64,000 bases of DNA from Girardia tigrina. Lineage: Eukaryota. Both the position numbers and the translations under genes were made by a program. The stretch covers positions 1 to 64,000 of the forward strand of contig MQRK01249724.1 in assembly GCA_001938485.1 (NCBI GenBank), given 5' to 3'. The notes beneath the pieces are model-generated. The model had not been told where the DNA came from and did not search any database. It worked only from the letters and a program-made list of their open reading frames with translations. This document shows, piece after piece, positions 24,210-63,522 of the stretch (the first letter of the stretch is position 1; every line of letters begins with the position of its first letter).

Positions 24210-25771
24210 TCAGGTGCAAAAGTTTGTGAACGCTTGTTGTCTTTTGCACCCAACTGCAATTATATTGACAAAAGCACACCAAAACACAAAGATTTTATTA
24301 GAACATTATAATAAAGCAAAAATTTATCAAAATTTGTCATAACTGGCACATAAACCACGAAAAACCAGTGCATATTTAGTATTTACTGGTTTAAGAGTAT
24401 AAATCAATGGAAAAAAAGTTAACTATAACTGCTAGTTGGACATTCATTTATGTACAAGCTTTCAAATTTTGACTGAATAAATGTTAAAAGATTTTTTTCG
24501 GAACTAAAATAATTTATTAAATATTTTCAAAATCATAAAAAACAGTACAAATAAATTTCTAATCAAACCGAGATCATAGAGACATTTAAATCTGAATAAA
24601 GATCATGTACAAAAAAATAATTTTTATCACGCGATTATAATTAAATTGTATCCATTGATTAATAAAACTTTTGGGGACCCATAAACAAGGAAACTATCCT
24701 AATTCATTTCACACTTTGAACAGATTTAGCCATTTATTCTTTATCCAGTTCAATATCTCCAACGAACAAAAAGATCATCAAGTAAATTCTTGAACTGTTT
24801 TTCATTTCAGCTATTTCTTATCATAAAGGGCGTTTTCCTATTACTTACATCATCTTATCTATCCAACTGACAATACTTTTACTCTGATATTATATCAACA
24901 ATAATACAATGACTGCTCTGCCCGACTCTCAGGATGCCCAGAGTATCGGATGGAGGTAGTTTCATCGCGCAGCGTTGATATTCCTCGCTCTCAGAGTGCT
25001 GGGCCCATTTTAATTCACAAATTGTCGGAGACATATTAATGAATATTACGGATATGTTTCTTTCACGTCAACAAAAGAATTCAATTTCGAGGTATAATTT
25101 TTATTCAAAAAAATATTAGAAAAATGATGAATTCATTCGCATAATTGTCGATCGAGAAATTTTGATAAACAAAACAGATAATTCGTATATAATTCGATAA
25201 GTCAAATTAGTTGTTCATACAAATCCAATAAGCAAAAAAAGATAGTAGTTTAGTCCCGATCTATCATAAAATAATTGTTCATATGATTTCGAAAATCAAA
25301 ATGAAGCAGATAATAGCTCAAAATATAGATCAAACGAAAAAAATCGATGTTAATTTTTTGTTATTCACCATTCAATCGATCGATGGTTGTGCCTTCATTT
25401 CTAAATTTTAAACATTCAATCGGCTTTTTGGGTGGTCAGTAGATATAATAATACGTGTATAAGCCAAAATTAATTTAAAATAATTTTATTTCAAAAAAAA
25501 TAATTTTTTTTAAAAAAAATAATTTTAATCAAAGGCCACATCAAAGATGCGGCCTCCGAAAAACAATATTCTTCTAATAAAAAAAATAAAATTATTTTTT
25601 TTGAAATAAAATAATTTTTTTAAATTAAATTCAACTTATACACGTATTATTATATCTACTCTAAAATGGAAAAAAAAATTTTATTAAAATTATTTTTTAC
25701 AAAAATATTTTTTAAATTTTATTAAAAATTTTTTTACATAAAAATATTTTTAATTTTATCGGTCAATAAAA

Positions 25772-26645
25772 TTTTTAGCGCAATTTTCATACTGACAATT
25801 GCGATTATTAATTGGTTATCTCTGTGTGGATGGATGGATGTGTGTCCGCAGCTTTAAGTCGTATCTCCTCAACGAAGCAATATCGAGGGCTAGTTCCAAA
25901 AGCAAATATGTTAAGCAAGTTCGGAGGATGATTGTGGGCCAAAAAAAATTCCCGGAATTCCTTCCTGGGTTTCCCGGAAAAGCCAAAAAACCTCGAAAAA
26001 ATGCTGTTTTTGGCCTATATCTCGGCAACCAGACCACTTAGCGACTTGAAACATTTACCAATCGATTCCTACAATAATTTAGAACAATATTGCCGAAGAA
26101 AGTTTTCAAAAATATCCTTTAGTTCGGTCACAAAAAATTAATCATAGTCAAATACTGATATAAACGTTTTAATAATTAATAGACAACTATTAATTTCATA
26201 TGGATTTATTAATTAATTTTAATTAATTTTATATGGGCATTGTTTACTTGATGAAGTTGCTTTTTAGCGCAATTTACGAAAATTAAACCCCTAGATTGAC
26301 CCTCTTATCCTGAATATAAGCTTTTACTTGTGCGGATTATGCGGATTATCGTAATCCGATCAAATTCGGTAATTTTTTCATGGATGTGCTGTCGGATTAT
26401 CCAATATTCGAATTAAAGGCAGCAACAACAAACAATTTTCTAAAATTAATTTTGGTTAAAATTCGATTAAAATCCGCATAATTAAAGTTTCTTCAAGGAT
26501 TCAAATCGATAAGTGAGAATGAAACGAAAAAAAAAATCGTTCGGTCACCAAAAATTAATCATAGTCAAATACTGATATAAATGTTTTAATATTTTGGCAC
26601 CGAATAACATAAGGAAATTGCGCCTAAATTGTCACTAGACTTTTT
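25772..26645 (+). mobile_element. Non-autonomous Helentron (HINE/DINE-1-like) insertion within the left inverted repeat of the mini-element
   Basis: Starts in a T run (tttttAGCGCAATTT) with a nearby inverted copy (caattgcg) and a tgga-type microsatellite. Ends with an inverted AAATTGCGC plus a short tail and T run. A second start lies at 26261, and 26122-26173 repeats at 26540-26590. Confidence 0.55.
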
Positions 26646-26716
26646 ATTAACTTGTTTATAATTGGATCGATAAAAAAGCTTTAAAACGGAAATAAGTGAT
26701 AGAACTCTGTTTTTAT

Positions 26717-27919
26717 CTATTCATTTGAATAAAATCTTCCTAAAATCTTTTCACCATTTAAATCGGACAGTCCATAAGTTATCGGATCAGAGTAATACAC
26801 TTTATAATAAAAATTTCTTTACTAAATTTATGTATATCCTTTTTCAAATTTATTTTTATATCTATAAATTCTTACTCGAGTACCAATTTTGAATTTTGGA
26901 CTTTGTAAATTTGGATTTTGTAAATTTGGAGTGTGTTTTATTAATAAATTAGGATATTCTGATGCTTCTTTTGGAGTTATTCCAATTATCGAATGAATTG
27001 TATTATTATATTCATCTACCAACTTATTTAATAGAGTGATATCCCATTTTTGATTTCCTCGAATTGTAAAATATTTAAATAATTTATTTTTTAGTGTTCT
27101 ATTAAATCTTTCAATAACTACTGCTTTTCCTTCATTATAAGTTGAATATAGAATAATATTATAATCTTTTAAATATTCTTTAAATGATCGATTATAAAAT
27201 TCTGTTCCTTGATCAACCCATAAGTAATTTGGTTTTCTATTATATTTTTCTATTATATTTTCAAATTCTTCAATAATTTGAGTGCCTTTTTTATTTTCTA
27301 ATGGATAAATAAATGTAAATCTTGTACATAAATCAATGACTGTTAAAATATGAATTTGTTTTTGGGAACCTTTTTGTTTATTTCATGCATTTGGTAAGAA
27401 TATTAAATCTGCAGACCAAATATCATCTCTTTTACTTACTTCTACTTTTAAATATTTCTTTGGTTTTTTATATTCATGATGTAATTCATTTGCTAATTTG
27501 AAAGCTTTTGACTGTTTATCTAGTTTAGATTCATCTTGTTCATCTTCGATTGATTCATCTTCAAAGTGAAACTCCGTTTTATCTTCATCCGCTTGCTTAT
27601 ATAAATTTTCAATTGTTTTGGATTTAGCTGTTCTTTCGAGGCCGCCGCCAAATAATAATTTTCCTTTCATAGCTAATTTAATTAAAAATCTGTCTATTCG
27701 TTCTCTTATAGTTGGATTTTGGATATCATTTATTTCATGAATTAGGCGGGTATCATCAATATGTCTATCTTCAAGATTATCTGATCTGTATGCTAAATCA
27801 TGTTTATAACATGCATTATCAACTCTATCAACTGGAATGTTTATATTTGAATTTGAATTTATATTCATATTTTCGGATTTGGAATTTTCTGATTTAATAT
27901 TTTCAGTTTCCATTTTCAT
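26717..27919 (-). pseudogene. Phospholipase A2 (parvovirus VP1u-type) fused to a Polinton-type retroviral-like integrase; one internal TGA, disrupted tail
   Basis: PVDRVDNACYKHDLAY...RHIDDTRLI (PLA2 HD core), then WSADL..NA*NKQKG..ILTVIDLCTRF..LWVDQGTEFYN..KAVVIERFNRTLK..YNNTIHSIIGITP..FKIGTRVRI..FEKGYT, all in one frame. Tail DPITYGLSDLNGEKILGRFYSNE follows stops/frameshifts. Confidence 0.9.
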
Positions 27920-28079: not shown

Positions 28080-28625
28080 TTTTAATATAAATTTTTTTTA
28101 ATATAAATTTTTTTACCGATTGGAAAAATGATAGATTAATCGCCAAAAAATTTAAATGTGAAAAAAATTTTAATTATGAGAGATTTATAATGATAGATTT
28201 AATCGCCAAAAAATTTAAATGTGAAAAAATATTTTAATTATGAGAGATTTATAATGATAGATTTAATTTTTTTTTAATGATAGATTAATCGCCAAAAAAT
28301 TTAAATGTGAAAAAAAATTTTAATTATGAGAGATTTATAATGATAGATTTAATCGCCAAAAAATTTAAATGTGAAAAAATATTTTAATTTTTTTTTCGCC
28401 AATTGGCTTATAAATTTTTACATATGAAAATAATTTTTGACTTATAAAAAAATATTTAAAAATAAAATTAGGATTGATAATTCGAACTGATACAATTTTT
28501 TTTAATATAATTTTTTTAATATAAATTTTTTTTAATATAAATTTTTTTACCGATTGGAAAAATTTAATATTAAAATTTTTGGCCTATAAATTTTTTCATA
28601 TGAAAATAATTTTTGGCTTATAAAA
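28080..28625. repeat. Subterminal repeat complex: ~62 bp unit x4 plus duplicated AT-rich blocks
   Basis: atgatagatt(t)aatcgccaaaaaatttaaatgtgaaaaa...ttaattatgagagatttata repeats over 28128-28390; blocks 28084-28128/28520-28561 and 28405-28452/28581-28628 are duplicated. Confidence 0.9.
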
Positions 28626-28736
28626 AAATTTTATTGACCGATAAAATTAAAAAATATTTTATGTAAAAAAATTTTTAATAAAATTTATTTTTCCATTTTA
28701 GAGTAGATATAATAATACGTGTATATGTTAAAATTA

Positions 28737-28785
<49 letters not shown>

Positions 28786-36899: not shown

Positions 36900-39800
36900 T
36901 ACTTATCGTTATCCTCGGATAACAGGAGAACACTCCGAGCTAGAGTCACTCATTGCAGCGTATTACTTTCCCCCCTCGCCGCAATCTGCTGTTGGCGCAT
37001 CTGCCGCGACCGTTGCAGGAACAATAGTCGCTGCATTTGACGTGAGGGGATTCCACTGGCCGGTGTTGTGTTTACTCCATCTCAATGTACAATACTTGAC
37101 ATTGGAGACAATACACATGCGTCTCATATTTTTTGTTGTTGTCTCTGAGAGCTTTAAGGTTTTCAGTATTGTTTCGTTTTCAGTCGGTCAAGAACCCAAG
37201 CAACTCACCACAATGGTACCCAGTCGAACTGTCCATCCCCTGTAGTGCTTTTTATATTTCGTCTCATTGTTTTTTCTTGCTTTGTTTAGAGTTTTAACCG
37301 TGTCTTACGGTGTTTTGACATCGATCAGCCAGAGTTCTTAGTACCCTTATTGTATATTTGTAAGTCAACTCTGCTTTTCGAGTCAGACCACGCGTACTTA
37401 TAGTCTTTATTTATTTGTAAAATTGGTTTTTCCGATGATATTGCTTCCTCAACAATCTGCATCACCGCATTATGTCTGGCAGTAATCATAAGACTATTTC
37501 TTTTACTGAGGCACAAGACATGTATCTGTGTCTCTGTATCTTTGCTGCACGCTCGGCAGAGCGTTTCATTGCGTGGTTTTCTCGGTTTAAAATTAGTTTG
37601 AAGAGTGTTTGTTCGTGAACAGTTCGCCATTCTTCGTTTGTAATGTTTTTACTGTGCATGACACCAACACAATCCTTGTTATTTACAATCGCAACTGCAG
37701 AGATTCCAGCCATCGTTTGTTAGCTCCAATTTGTGAATTTTAGTTTTGCATACAAACGATGAAATTGGGAGGAGATTGAGTGGATGTGAGTTTTATAAAT
37801 CAGGACCGACTCCGTATCAGTGTTGATCTTTAAGCAGATTCCAAGTTCGTTCGTGGTAATTCTTGCTCGCAACCCAATAGAATCGGGATATATAATTGAG
37901 TTGCGAATCTTTATCCATTACGATTTGAATCCGTTCTCTCTGTCGCCTTTATTTAGTCACTCTAGGCAATAGAGAGTGACCAGTCTCTATTTGTTTCGTG
38001 GTACTTATCTAGAGTTTTTACTAAATTAATTAATGTTACGCCCTGAGATGTTGAGTCCAAACAAGTGAGATTTCGAGATACTTGTACTATCGATTGCATT
38101 GCATATTCATCTCTCACTGACACAAGTCCAAGTCTTCTAAGATCCTTATCTTCATGCAAGTATGTGTTGGAGGAGTTCTGGACTGTGCCAAATATTTTTT
38201 ACAATAGTCGTCGGAGTTCGACATCCAGGCCGCCATTAAAAAGTGATTTTTCTTTACGTGATTCCCGTAGTTTGTTAGTTCCCGATTCGGTATATTGTAA
38301 TTTCTAAAATGTGAACCTGGAGTGTATAAATATTTTATACGCCTCCAGTTTTTGCTACGAGAACAACACAGACTTGCTGATTTTTTTCAGATCTTTAACT
38401 GCCGATTTAAACAAGTCTACGGGAGTGTTCTTGGATTTTCGTGTACAGTCAACACCCAAGTAACGGTATACTTCTTCATCTTTAACTATTGGAATGTTAG
38501 TGTGATAAATATTGATGTTCTCAGATGAAGAAGGAACAGATAGATAACCACACTTACTGGGTTTGAACTTCATCGAAGTCCAAGAGACAATCTCCGTTGC
38601 CTTGTCTACCATTGTTTGCAAGTACTCATTCGTTTTTGCAATCAATGCAAGAACCTCGGCGTAAGCAAGACAAGTTATGTGTCCGCTTGTGTTTCTTTGC
38701 CGAATCGTTCATTTTCCTATACTGAATAACAACATCGAAAGTGGGCATCCCGGTCGCACCCCCCGTTTGATTTCTATGTTCTCAGTTATGCAATCATTGT
38801 ATTTGTAAATTGACGCACAATCTGAGTATAAATTACGTAAAATGGAGCACGAAAATTCGTCAACTCCTTTATCTGATAGTATATCCAATATGTGTTCAAT
38901 TGGTATACTGCCAAATGCATCCGTCAAATCTAGGAATGTGGAGATCGGTGTTGTCCATTAATAGGATACACATTACATTATTGTGTTTTGCACACTCGTC
39001 AGATGGACCAGTCCCCTTTTGGAAAGGAGAGATTAGGTTGTTTGTTGTCAACCACTGCTCCATCTGACCGCATAAACATGAAGTGAATAGCGAAACACTC
39101 CATCAATGCAATCGGTCTCCATGACCCGATTTCGTTATGTACCAGTTTTACCTGGTTTAGGGATCATCACTGAGAATTTTGTTCCATTTCTCCGGAATAA
39201 TTCCAATAGTGATGATCTTATTAAACAAGAATGCAGTCAACTGGCAGCCTGGGTCGTAATAATCGATATCTGAATAATTTATGTTGGGAACTCCTGGGCT
39301 GGTTTTCTTTGTTTCCTTCAGAACTGCAACCACCTCTTCTGAAGATATTTGCCTAAATCTAAAGGTTGGTCCTGAGTTAATATTTGGAGATCTGGACCAA
39401 TCTGTTATGGGCGGATCACCAGATTTCGATTCTTCATATTTAGTTAAATTTTCGATAGATAATTCACAATCCACGCTAGTATCATTTAATCTATAGCTTT
39501 TTTTTGTTTATTTTGTATTATTTTTTTTCTATCTTTTCTATTCCTAATTTTATTAAGTTTTTTATCAGCGTCAAGGTTCTTCGTAGTTTTTTTCTAGTTT
39601 TTAAGATATATTCTGTAATCTTATGTTCTAATTTTTCAGAGCTCAAAAGTTTTACTTTCTTCAATTAGTTTTGTTATCTTATCAAACCTTTGAGATCTGT
39701 CCTCCTTTATTTTGATTTGTTTCTCTCTATTTTTTATTTATTTATTTGATTTTATTTTTGTAATATCATAAGTGAGTTTTTTTGCATCAAATTTTGGAGT

Positions 39801-47000: not shown

Positions 47001-48039
47001 GAAGAGATCCATATCCAATTCTTCTTTGAAAAATTTTCGCGCTGCCATTAGGCTTTTTTCGGTATCCAATGCCGAGATTACATGTTCGATCTGGGCCTTC
47101 TGCTGAATTGCCGTTGGATTTTGTGTCGCTTTCTTTGATTGAGGCTTGTAGAAATATCAAATTCAATCTCAAAGAAGAACAATAAAAAAATCTTTTCAGC
47201 TTTGATCTGTTGAATTTGTTATTTCTAACTAGTATAAATCGTGAAGAAAAGATCAATTACGATAAACATAGACTAAGTTAATCAAACTGTATAATTCTCT
47301 TTGAAATTTAATGAAATTAGTCGTTATTTAATCAACACTAACAATTAATTAATAAATAAGAATAATAAACTCGATTGTTGAGCAATAAAAAAATTTTTAA
47401 TGATAGTAACCTTTACAATAGTAACACCATGCTATCCAATAAAGTAATTGAAACAAAGCCACTATATATGGGAATTCAGAGTCAATGATTATACCACAAT
47501 ATAAATAGTAAGCTGATTAAAAAAATATTCAGTGAGGAGAATCACACGATTGATACATGCAATGACAGTCAGCAAGTTAGTCGAACAGAAAATTCGCAGC
47601 TAAGCATAAATATAAATTATAATAATTTCTGGATTGATTTCTATTTTGATTTCTAAAGCTTCTTCACTTTTAAAATCTTCTGTTGAATGATATTGTAATC
47701 CCTCCAAGATTCCACAGTGCTTCTATATTTAGGAATTGTAATTTGCGGATGGATTCTATTTGTATTTGATTGCCACAATTGATGGATTAATTACTGCTCG
47801 AATACAAAGTTCCAAATTCTTTTGGGTAATTTCCCATGATGAGAATTTCTGCAATCTGTTCGATTGTGACCTATCCTTTCCGAAGATAAGGATGGATTCA
47901 GATATAATGTGCCACTCAATTGACCCGGTGGTCATTCCTACGCAAAATCCTTGCGTGGCTGTGGCACGTTGGTGCTTGGAGGCGGATTTCAGGTCGTGGG
48001 AAGAGACGAATTATGATCTCACCCACCAGATCTTTGCTT

Positions 48040-48470
48040 TCTGACAAATCCCTTAGATACTGCTCATCATCGTCACCATTGAATATAATTAGGATTTTGT
48101 CGGCCGCCATATACAGCGAATATAATTCCTCTTCACGACTGAAGTCCAACAGTTCGTTGATCGTGTGACAATCTTTTCTCAGGAAATTAAGCGCCTCCAG
48201 ATGGAAATGTTCAGCATTTCGAGACACATCGATCATCCAAATTTTCCCGTCATAATAAACAAGATTAAATTCAGTCAAATTCACGTGAATCAATTGACAA
48301 TTGTGAAACAACACTCATATTTCCCGATTTGTTCATACAATTCCACCTTCTCGGTCTCAAATTCAAAATCTTTCAATTTTGGCCTCTCCCATCGATCCAA
48401 TCATCGGCATCACAAGCACCATGCTTTTCTGTTTAATCAAATTCATAAAAACCAGATCGCATTTATATAC
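48040..48470 (-). pseudogene. RIO-family atypical kinase pseudogene fragment (RIOK1/RIOK3-like C-lobe)
   Basis: Frameshifted VLVMPMIG / PKLKDFEFETEKVELYEQI / LFHNCQLIHVNLTEFNLVYYDGKIWMIDVSRNAEHFHLEALNFLRKDC. The catalytic HADL is altered to HVNL. Confidence 0.85.
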
Positions 48471-51095: not shown

Positions 51096-51330
51096 CTATT
51101 TGCTTGTTTGTATATTGTCCTTCAAGCGCCTTCTAAAAATATTTAAACCCTGATTTGCAATTTCAAAACTGGACGACAAATTCCAAACTCTGTGAACAAG
51201 CCCTTTGATCATACCCTCTCTGTATTTTTCCTCACAAAAACTCTGTGGTATTGTGTAAAGACCTGTATCTGTTGCCTTTCTGAATAATTCAGTTTTATAG
51301 CCTCTGTAAAAGTTATTATTCCGAAAATGG
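51096..51330 (-). mobile_element. Penelope-like element RT C-terminal (thumb) fragment
   Basis: KTELFRKATDTGLY...S....KYREGMIKGLVHRVWNLSS matches the PLE YRKxTxTGxY...LxxRA pattern. Confidence 0.75.
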
Positions 51331-62027: not shown

Positions 62028-63522
62028 CTTAGGCTATCCCAAAAGTCCTCAGGTGGCCTTTAAAAACACACTAATATTCTACCAAATTTAATCAAATTTA
62101 GACTGAATATTATTCAGACTGTCATAAATACTGTGTTAAAATTTCAAAGCATAAAATTTGACACTTACCAAAAAAAATAATATTATTAACCAACAAAAAA
62201 AAATAGATGCAGCGAATTTAAAAATTTATTTAAAAAAAATATTTTAAAAATTTCTTAAGCAACAACATATTCACCATTGTTGTCAATAACCAACTGACAA
62301 TAGTTAAAAAGTTTATCTAGTTGATTTTTTAATGTTTCTGTTGATAAAGAATTAAAAAATAATTTACAAGCTTCTTCAATTTCTTCATGTGATTTGAAAA
62401 CATGATTTTTAAAACTTTTTTCCATTTTTGAAAATAATAATCTGTCACACAGATTAAAATCTGGACTAAAGGGCGATTGATAATTTTTTTTCAATTTTTC
62501 TTCTTTCAAAAAAAAAGTTTTTTCTTTGCTAGAATGAGGTCTTGCATTATCATGCCACCCCTTAAGTTCCTTTAGCTTAATGCTGTTAGATCTAAGTTTC
62601 CGCCATTTTTCACCGGTTTCATGAACAAAGTTCACATACGCCTCGGAATCAATCTTGGTACCATATGACAGTGCTTTTACATTAAAACGTTTGTCGCAGG
62701 TAAAGGTTACGAAAACGATAGATTTTTTATCAGTTATTGGCGATGGCTTTATCACTTTTGGTGGAACAGCATTAGAAGGAATCCAAACTTTGTGATCTTT
62801 CTTTCCTCTACCTTGGAAAAAACCCGTCTCATTCTCGATCGCTATGTTGGAATATGCTTCATCACCCATCTGTGAAATTACATGGCGTATATGCTTTGCA
62901 GTGTTAATGCGTTGTTGTTTATTAGTAGCAGAAAGTTCGTGAGGGACTCAAACAGAGCAAACTCTTTTGTAATGAAGTTTTTCACGCAAAATTTTGTGGA
63001 CTGTATTTTTGCCTAAAGAAAGTTCATTTTCAATATAACCCAAAGACGCATTTGGAGCTTCATCAATCACTTCTTTGACTGCTTTAATCTTTTCATCGTC
63101 TATTAATAACGGCCTGTCACTTCTTGATGAATCGTCGAAGGACGTCCGCTTTTCTTTTTTAAAATCAGTCAACCATCGTTGAATAGTTTTCAGTGCTGAG
63201 TGATTTGCGTCTTCCCATGCCTACTGAAGTTGCTGAAGAATTTCTGAAGCAGAGAATCCTCTTTTACTTTGAGTTAGAACAAAAAAACGTTGGCAACATT
63301 TATTTGGTCTCATTGTTAAAAACCGCTTGATTTGAATTCGCTGCACTTTTAAAATTTCAATACTTTAATAAAACAAAATTTTACTTTTTTTAATTTTATG
63401 CTTTGAAATTTTAGCACAGTATTTATGACAGTCTGAATAATATTCAGTCCAAATTTGGTTAAATTTGGTAAAATATTAGTGTGTTTTTAAAGGCCACTTG
63501 AGGACTTTTGGGACAGCCTAAG
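62028..63522 (-). mobile_element. Full-length mariner (DD34D-type) transposon with 131 bp TIRs and TA TSD
   Basis: TA|CTTAGGC...GCCTAAG|TA; TIRs at 62028-62158 and 63392-63522. Confidence 0.95.
62255..63313 (-). pseudogene. Mariner transposase with two in-frame stops
   Basis: MRPNKCCQRFFV..LQ*AW..IQRWLTDFKK..SRSDRP..CSV*VPHEL (WVPHEL), IENET (first catalytic D replaced by N), HDNARPH and PFSPDFNLCD, with 34 residues between the second and third D. Confidence 0.92.

Follow-up and report, generated by a model that had tools for sequence, protein, structure and literature searches.

A parvovirus-type phospholipase A2 (PLA2) and a retrovirus-like (rve) integrase share one reading frame at this locus, which raises the question of whether their fusion is an inherited gene architecture and how the two enzymes might be used together. 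The window, i.e., the whole stretch of 64,000 nucleotides analyzed here, is AT-rich (mostly 22–40% G+C), gapped, eukaryotic (probably animal) DNA that contains many repeats. Within it, the helical half of the PLA2, a linker and the rve integrase form one frame on the minus strand (27919–26717), with the following features.

27854–27919, minus strand: low-complexity N-terminal codons, without homology to intact relatives
27647–27853, minus strand: C-terminal half of the parvovirus-type PLA2 (own-profile match, E 4e-22)
27797–27802, minus strand: HD dyad of the PLA2
27641–27655, minus strand: LFGGG, the conserved GxG at the PLA2/integrase border and a candidate maturation-protease site, with presumed cleavage
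27497–27640, minus strand: charged linker of 48 residues (15 D/E, 9 K/R), in frame
26960–27496, minus strand: rve integrase core (own-profile match, E 6e-71)
27407–27409, 27212–27214 and 27110–27112, minus strand: integrase catalytic D, D and E, respectively, with the D-D-E triad present
27383–27385, minus strand: in-frame TGA within the integrase core
26717–26899, minus strand: integrase C-terminal domain, which we take to be SH3-like, broken by three stops

As the original prediction held, the PLA2, the acidic linker and the integrase share the frame, the D-D-E residues and the HD catalytic dyad are present (the latter together with the downstream Tyr/Asp), and the calcium loop (YxGxG) is missing; the N-terminal half of the PLA2 domain has gone altogether, with low-complexity sequence in its place. 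The prediction also named an upstream, out-of-frame TISNYKY as a possible remnant of this loop, but a profile of the missing half matched nothing in any frame upstream, and the upstream-most of the listed tblastn alignments of 120 homologues end at 27835. Moreover, the frame had been described as broken only by the TGA, while three further in-frame stops (26828–26830, 26822–26824 and 26819–26821) lie inside the same span, where a short part of the C-terminal domain is out of register, and bring the internal stops to four. The frame closes at 26717–26719, a few codons before the end of its relatives. A Pfam search of the stop-corrected protein, proposed along with the prediction and made, like the other searches, with X placed at the breaks, recovered rve above the cut-off (E 1e-10), while Phospholip_A2_4 (PF08398) stayed below it (E 0.0011, 19.6 bits against 23.9). 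The window copy is dead and capable of neither the lipase nor the integrase job.

The protein search returned 798 matches, of which the best 120 were analyzed (coverage of 199–636 residues, which favors fused forms), and 87 of these 120 carry both PLA2 and rve, with the calcium loop kept in 71 of the 87 and the HD motif in 78. Its closest relatives, one 51% and one 50% identical, both encode the fusion intact, and the first third of the window linker is conserved in P0002, the 50%-identical one. Judged from these sequence comparisons, the window's lineage has inherited its in-frame fusion. In an integrase tree of 56 rows (one of them, P0016, mis-cut and only 13% filled), the window belongs to a clade with good support whose 17 rows lack a chromodomain, namely 15 fused relatives, one relative with a −1 overlap and the window itself, and its integrase clusters with Polinton-borne integrases. 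A C-terminal chromodomain, which is part of the adintovirus integrase definition in PMC11071296, is absent in the window and in its nearest intact relatives, and is present in other branches, e.g., P0069, and weakly in locus L003. Polinton context is provided by DNA_pol_B_2 in L001 and by Pox_A32 and double-jelly-roll matches in L001, L003 and L023; L003 is 15.6 kb long with 123-bp inverted repeats at its bounds. As for the domains themselves, the PLA2 sequence profile matches AAV VP1 (E 0.002), the predicted model of P0001 folds like foamy-virus integrase (Foldseek E 2.5e-15), and the L003 PLA2 model comes closest to rice PLA2, at Z 7.6 and with an rmsd of 4.2 across 94 residues, a Z below 8 being common for the tool.

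Several observations were made beside the family's core. At the precursor N-terminus, the relatives closest to the window, including among P0001, P0002 and P0059, bear a zinc finger of the form CxxC...HxxxxxH, others a DUF5679 domain with four Cys (examined in L003, 7066–7185) and some neither; this N-terminal zinc-binding domain is a candidate genome tether. In L079 (514–2499) and L086 (3–1931), PLA2 and integrase are fused across a very long insert, which gives proteins of some 650 aa. Many small viral contigs of 2.6–3.5 kb (L094–L107, L109 and L111–L124, of which L094 was inspected) bear a PLA2-like ORF of this family on its own. The extra viral-contig scans yielded no new two-domain junction, and the six inspected of 35 new PLA2 loci have no integrase behind the PLA2. 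As well, Polinton-type integrase loci were found in prokaryote metagenome-assembled genomes (L127–L133), which are probably mis-binned eukaryotic virus contigs. Among the further loci, L089 and L125 are the contig of L002, and L126 is the contig of L003.

How the two domains are joined was scored at the DNA level. Of 88 loci, 17 were dropped (10 lacking a domain and 7 with the junction uncovered), and the 71 scorable junctions comprise 37 in frame, 24 with a −1 overlap, 6 with a +1 shift and 4 with an in-frame stop. After 31 of the 71 were removed as not intact and four loci from an integrase-only search were added (L131 being left out as a near-duplicate of L130, and L132 and L133 as lacking PLA2), the 44 intact junctions comprise 20 in frame, 18 with a −1 overlap, 3 with a +1 shift and 3 with an in-frame stop. 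The −1 overlaps sit directly after the conserved GxG, at an A-rich site, and the PLA2 frame stops soon afterwards. An in-phase slippery heptamer (X_XXY_YYZ) lies no more than 45 nt from the GxG in 15/18 −1 loci vs 3/20 in-frame loci, or in 12 of 15 −1 loci when only the usable overlap is counted, and N_AAA_AAN is present in 18/18 vs 3/20, the Fisher and binomial statistics on the junctions having been computed with relatedness ignored. In 13 of 15 −1 loci (nine flagged by script and four by eye), the first Met of the integrase frame comes only after the first catalytic Asp, so that translation begun there would give a crippled integrase. The search by integrase alone has no bias towards fusion and gave five two-domain loci, four of them −1 (two being near-duplicates) and one +1, a −1 share of 3/4 after the near-duplicates are merged. 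Many relatives thus seem, judging from these overlaps, to join the domains by a retrovirus-style frame slip that is apparently undescribed. The window linker itself has a longest A run of 4 and no slippery site. Apart from these classes, L067 (6001–7530) has PLA2 and integrase in the same frame with a single TGA between them in an otherwise intact locus, which may be read-through or a lesion.

In retroviral gag-pol, the structural protein comes first and the enzyme lies in the −1 frame, and the precursor is packaged and released by the protease. A comparable PLA2/PLA2-integrase precursor, frameshifted or hard-wired, packaged and then cut, is probably the best explanation for this family. In the frameshifting lineages, most ribosomes would yield a short PLA2 virion protein, while a minority would slip by −1 to make a PLA2-integrase, the sole product with the full D-D-E triad; in other lineages, the window's included, the join would be hard-wired and the two domains made 1:1. 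The PLA2 part, often led by the small zinc-binding domain, would carry the integrase into the particle, where the element's adenain-like protease would cut on either side of the PLA2 domain, at the preceding GG and at the GxG that follows. The freed lipase might then serve membrane escape and the freed integrase insertion in the next cell. The proposal resembles retroviral gag-pol and differs from it in that the element is dsDNA, the carrier is a lipase rather than a capsid protein, and a stimulatory structure occurs in only some lineages.

Cleavage is suggested by the border itself. GxG is found at the PLA2/integrase border in 54/63 fused relatives with the first glycine invariant, and a GG motif precedes the PLA2 domain in 63/87 two-domain relatives (by a loose pattern). 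The stricter adenovirus-type form, (MIL)xGxG (10.1101/341131), fits only 4/63 borders. In mavirus, GG↓X and GX↓G are the sites cut by the protease (PMC6048507), the integrase is inside the virion, and a predicted hydrolase was found cleaved (PMC6048507; PMC6428243). The original prediction had coupled membrane entry with a packaged integrase in a fusion. Co-delivery of lipase and integrase in the particle is plausible by the mavirus analogy, but the GxG border, together with a split of frameshift type in many relatives, favors a precursor that is cleaved over a lasting two-headed enzyme. A protein that stays in one piece, breaching the membrane and delivering the integrase with it, is rather unlikely: it would suit the 20 of 44 intact junctions that are in frame, the 9 of 63 fused relatives where GxG is missing and linkers of down to 3 residues, yet it sits poorly with the prevalence of the border motif and with linker lengths that vary from 3 to 73 residues across fused relatives. 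Moreover, KxxxGxG also ends the PLA2 module of PLA2X proteins, before a different tail, and PLA2 occurs with no integrase behind it in L090, L091 and L093, both of which speak against a permanent union.

It could be that there is no recoding, the true gene always being in frame and the −1 and +1 forms being decay or sequencing slips in poly-A. Both mutations and sequencing errors are frequent in A runs, all three phases are found at the run, and loss of one base from an in-frame run gives the −1 phase; in addition, the junction state changes at least seven times on the integrase tree, where some changes may be decay. Individual cases also count against a frameshift, since L002, scored as −1, is more probably an in-frame locus that later gained an indel, and of the sisters L057 and P0059, which have the same linker, the first is −1 and the second fused. 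However, 18 of the 21 shifted intact junctions are −1, and the −1 loci among L001–L088 represent 15 distinct sequences at 90% clustering. An A run of at least six is absent in 18/20 in-frame loci and present (6–10 A) in all 15 of these −1 loci, whose 30 other A/T runs of at least six carry no shift, a control that is conditional on the choice of intact genes. The short tail is also the commonest within ten multi-copy protein clusters, in which 54 of 150 members lack the junction and, among the 96 scorable ones, 78 have the modal short post-GxG tail, 12 are +1-type and 6 are unclear (phase being inferred from tails, not DNA). As well, a stem with pair-keeping changes stands behind the heptamer in L129 and L130. 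The absence of recoding is therefore unlikely.

A_AAA_AAC is a known slippery site. It is found in L129 and L130, followed by a short spacer and a 12-bp stem that shows one two-sided and two one-sided pair-keeping changes, in two distinct sequences only. No conserved downstream hairpin was found across the 15 −1 loci (median z 0.3, pseudoknots being outside the scope of the search), among which downstream structure stands out only in L051 (z −4.5) and L020 (z −2.5). The lack of a general downstream structure leaves room for RNA-polymerase slippage on the A run, by which an edited transcript and not the ribosome would make the join, with the same protein outcome. The runs of 6–10 A in all 15 −1 loci would suit such slippage, and a plain run is the better description of L003 and L073, neither of which has a canonical heptamer within the usable overlap. 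On the other side, several runs are only 6 long, and the stem that lies downstream of a canonical A_AAA_AAC in L129, L130, L051 and L020 favors the ribosome, which makes polymerase slippage likewise an unlikely source of the join. An intron was tried as the means of joining PLA2 and integrase and was rejected: in 11 of 18 −1 loci, no GT..AG that would restore the frame reaches 40 nt, roughly the minimum for animal introns, and 4 of those 11 have none at all. With ribosomal slippage as the preferred route, the evidence leans towards the wider claim that a broad animal Polinton/adintovirus branch would package its integrase in gag-pol style, made only as a −1 extension of the virion phospholipase and released by the protease at GxG, with lineages repeatedly switching between the frameshifted and the hard-wired form.

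The window gene is flanked by the remains of an element, as follows (no strand assigned).

25438–25776: left terminal inverted repeat, beginning AGTAGA
25777–26716: interior segment with a 56-bp direct repeat (26122–26177 and 26539–26594)
28127–28389: subterminal tandem repeats, with units of 63–64 and 86 bp
28621–28741: right terminal inverted repeat, 87% identical to 25621–25736 over 123 columns

Similarity of the left repeat to the other copies ends exactly at 25438. The terminal AGTAGA is similar, but not identical, to the (AGT)2 and (AG)3 of vertebrate Mavericks, for which AG-type end motifs have been described (PMC8097293). The right repeat breaks off in a (TA)n run (28740–28782), so that neither its outer end nor a 6-bp target-site duplication, if there was one, is preserved. 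The outer 223 bp of the left repeat (25438–25660) form a fold-back unit (−55.2 kcal/mol, z −13.9, equaled by 0 of 200 shuffles) with AGTAGA...TCTACT ends, which resembles a miniature element inside the terminal repeat and whose start recurs at 28702–28741. The interior segment holds no Polinton gene remnant except the integrase tail, genes for protein-primed PolB, A32 ATPase, capsid and protease were not detected within the window, and when ORFs of at least 110 aa from L001–L088 were compared with the window by tblastn, 118 of 119 matches fell on the PLA2-integrase gene and one was a chance match. In the absence of any other Polinton gene in the window, the 3.3-kb piece is a deleted derivative and not an autonomous member, and set against whole elements of 15–20 kb (10.64898/2026.06.19.733378), it is an internally deleted relic. 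The locus is an inactive Maverick/Polinton (adintovirus-type) remnant that retains only inverted repeats and a broken PLA2-integrase gene.

Elsewhere in the window, a weak PLA2-like match at 51119–51244 lacks the HD motif and was taken as chance. The minus strand carries pieces of a decayed non-LTR retrotransposon (37328–39507, RVT_1 E 0.008), a RIO1 kinase domain fragment (47919–48314, E 3e-13) and a 230-codon frame (62258–62947) without a Pfam match at E 0.01, which by eye looks presumably like a mariner-type transposase. A search of the phage collection gave no match. A sequencing-run look-up returned 20 of 24 rows with part of the stretch and none with as much as half of it (best 0.45 and 0.39), which is not evidence of copy number, expression or host.

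With both repeats flanking a single gene and no other Polinton gene detectable in the window, the 3.3-kb piece might also be read as a self-standing minimal transposon family, composed of inverted repeats and an integrase gene, instead of a one-off deleted Polinton; its gene is broken, however, and the longer loci with checked neighbors (L001, L003 and L023) are Polinton-like, which makes such a family quite improbable. That a chance deletion joined two separate neighboring genes in the window copy, as the heavily deleted element and the separate domain ORFs of many relatives might suggest, is highly improbable and already refuted by the linker, since the nearest relatives are fused and linker sequence is held in common with P0002.

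With regard to known systems, PLA2 in Polintons has long been known (PMC3671162, PMC5803895, PMC7805220, PMC11296320), and earlier proposals have the lipases of such elements packaged and helping in entry (PMC4642659; PMC8502044). The original prediction allowed for a novel architecture, but the fusion is common among the best 120 matches and already labelled: the proteins of Adinto15303 and Adinto6405 are called 'PLA2-Integrase' in the supplement of the Buck et al. 2024 preprint (PMC11071296), these being 2 of 59 PLA2-named entries in the covered part of supplementary file 2. Both resemble the window lineage in having a parvovirus-type PLA2, GxG and rve integrase in one frame, whereas the window copy is broken and its linker is longer. 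In the main text of that preprint, as far as covered, 'PLA2-Integrase' was found only as a label, without discussion. The PLA2X of Alpha adintovirus (Starrett et al. 2021, PMC8502044) has the same PLA2 module, ending in KxxxGxG, with a proposed role in entry; it carries a pX-like tail, while the window and its relatives have the integrase after GxG instead. In L003, a separate pX-like gene gives an Adeno_PX match below the cut-off (E 0.0048).

Frameshifting in adintoviruses has been predicted before, as −1 slippery-site isoforms of Penton and Hexon-Adenain, and PLA2X is listed beside PLA2X-Adenain entries for some genomes (PMC11071296). In the same source, the split case of Adinto13074 is annotated as two genes, and its integrase starts without the first catalytic Asp motif. 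A PLA2-to-integrase frameshift is absent from the covered portions of this text and supplement (figures being outside that scope), and was not found in literature searches that included PMC11131425 and 10.1101/2023.08.22.554363 and mostly did not extend to subscription papers. An existing gene map or GenBank feature that marks such a frameshift is possible. Mavirus (Born et al. 2018, PMC6048507) is like the proposal in having the integrase in the virion, the GG↓X and GX↓G cuts and a cleaved MV13, and differs from it in that the integrase MV02 and the hydrolase MV13 are separate gene products, MV13 being a predicted alpha/beta hydrolase and not a parvovirus-type PLA2. According to a 2026 preprint (10.64898/2026.06.19.733378), no virions of animal Polintons have been observed so far.

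As a fossil, the window locus contributes little by itself, and the in-frame fusion is widespread and had been labelled before; the newer result is the switch between frameshift and fusion in its relatives, which is worth testing. The combination of a lipase-integrase precursor, a protease site and a frameshift offers a sequence-level argument for the integrase as virion cargo. If the frameshift is true, the published split integrase models of this branch would be N-terminally truncated, and annotations in which the integrase begins downstream of its first catalytic residue would be corrected.
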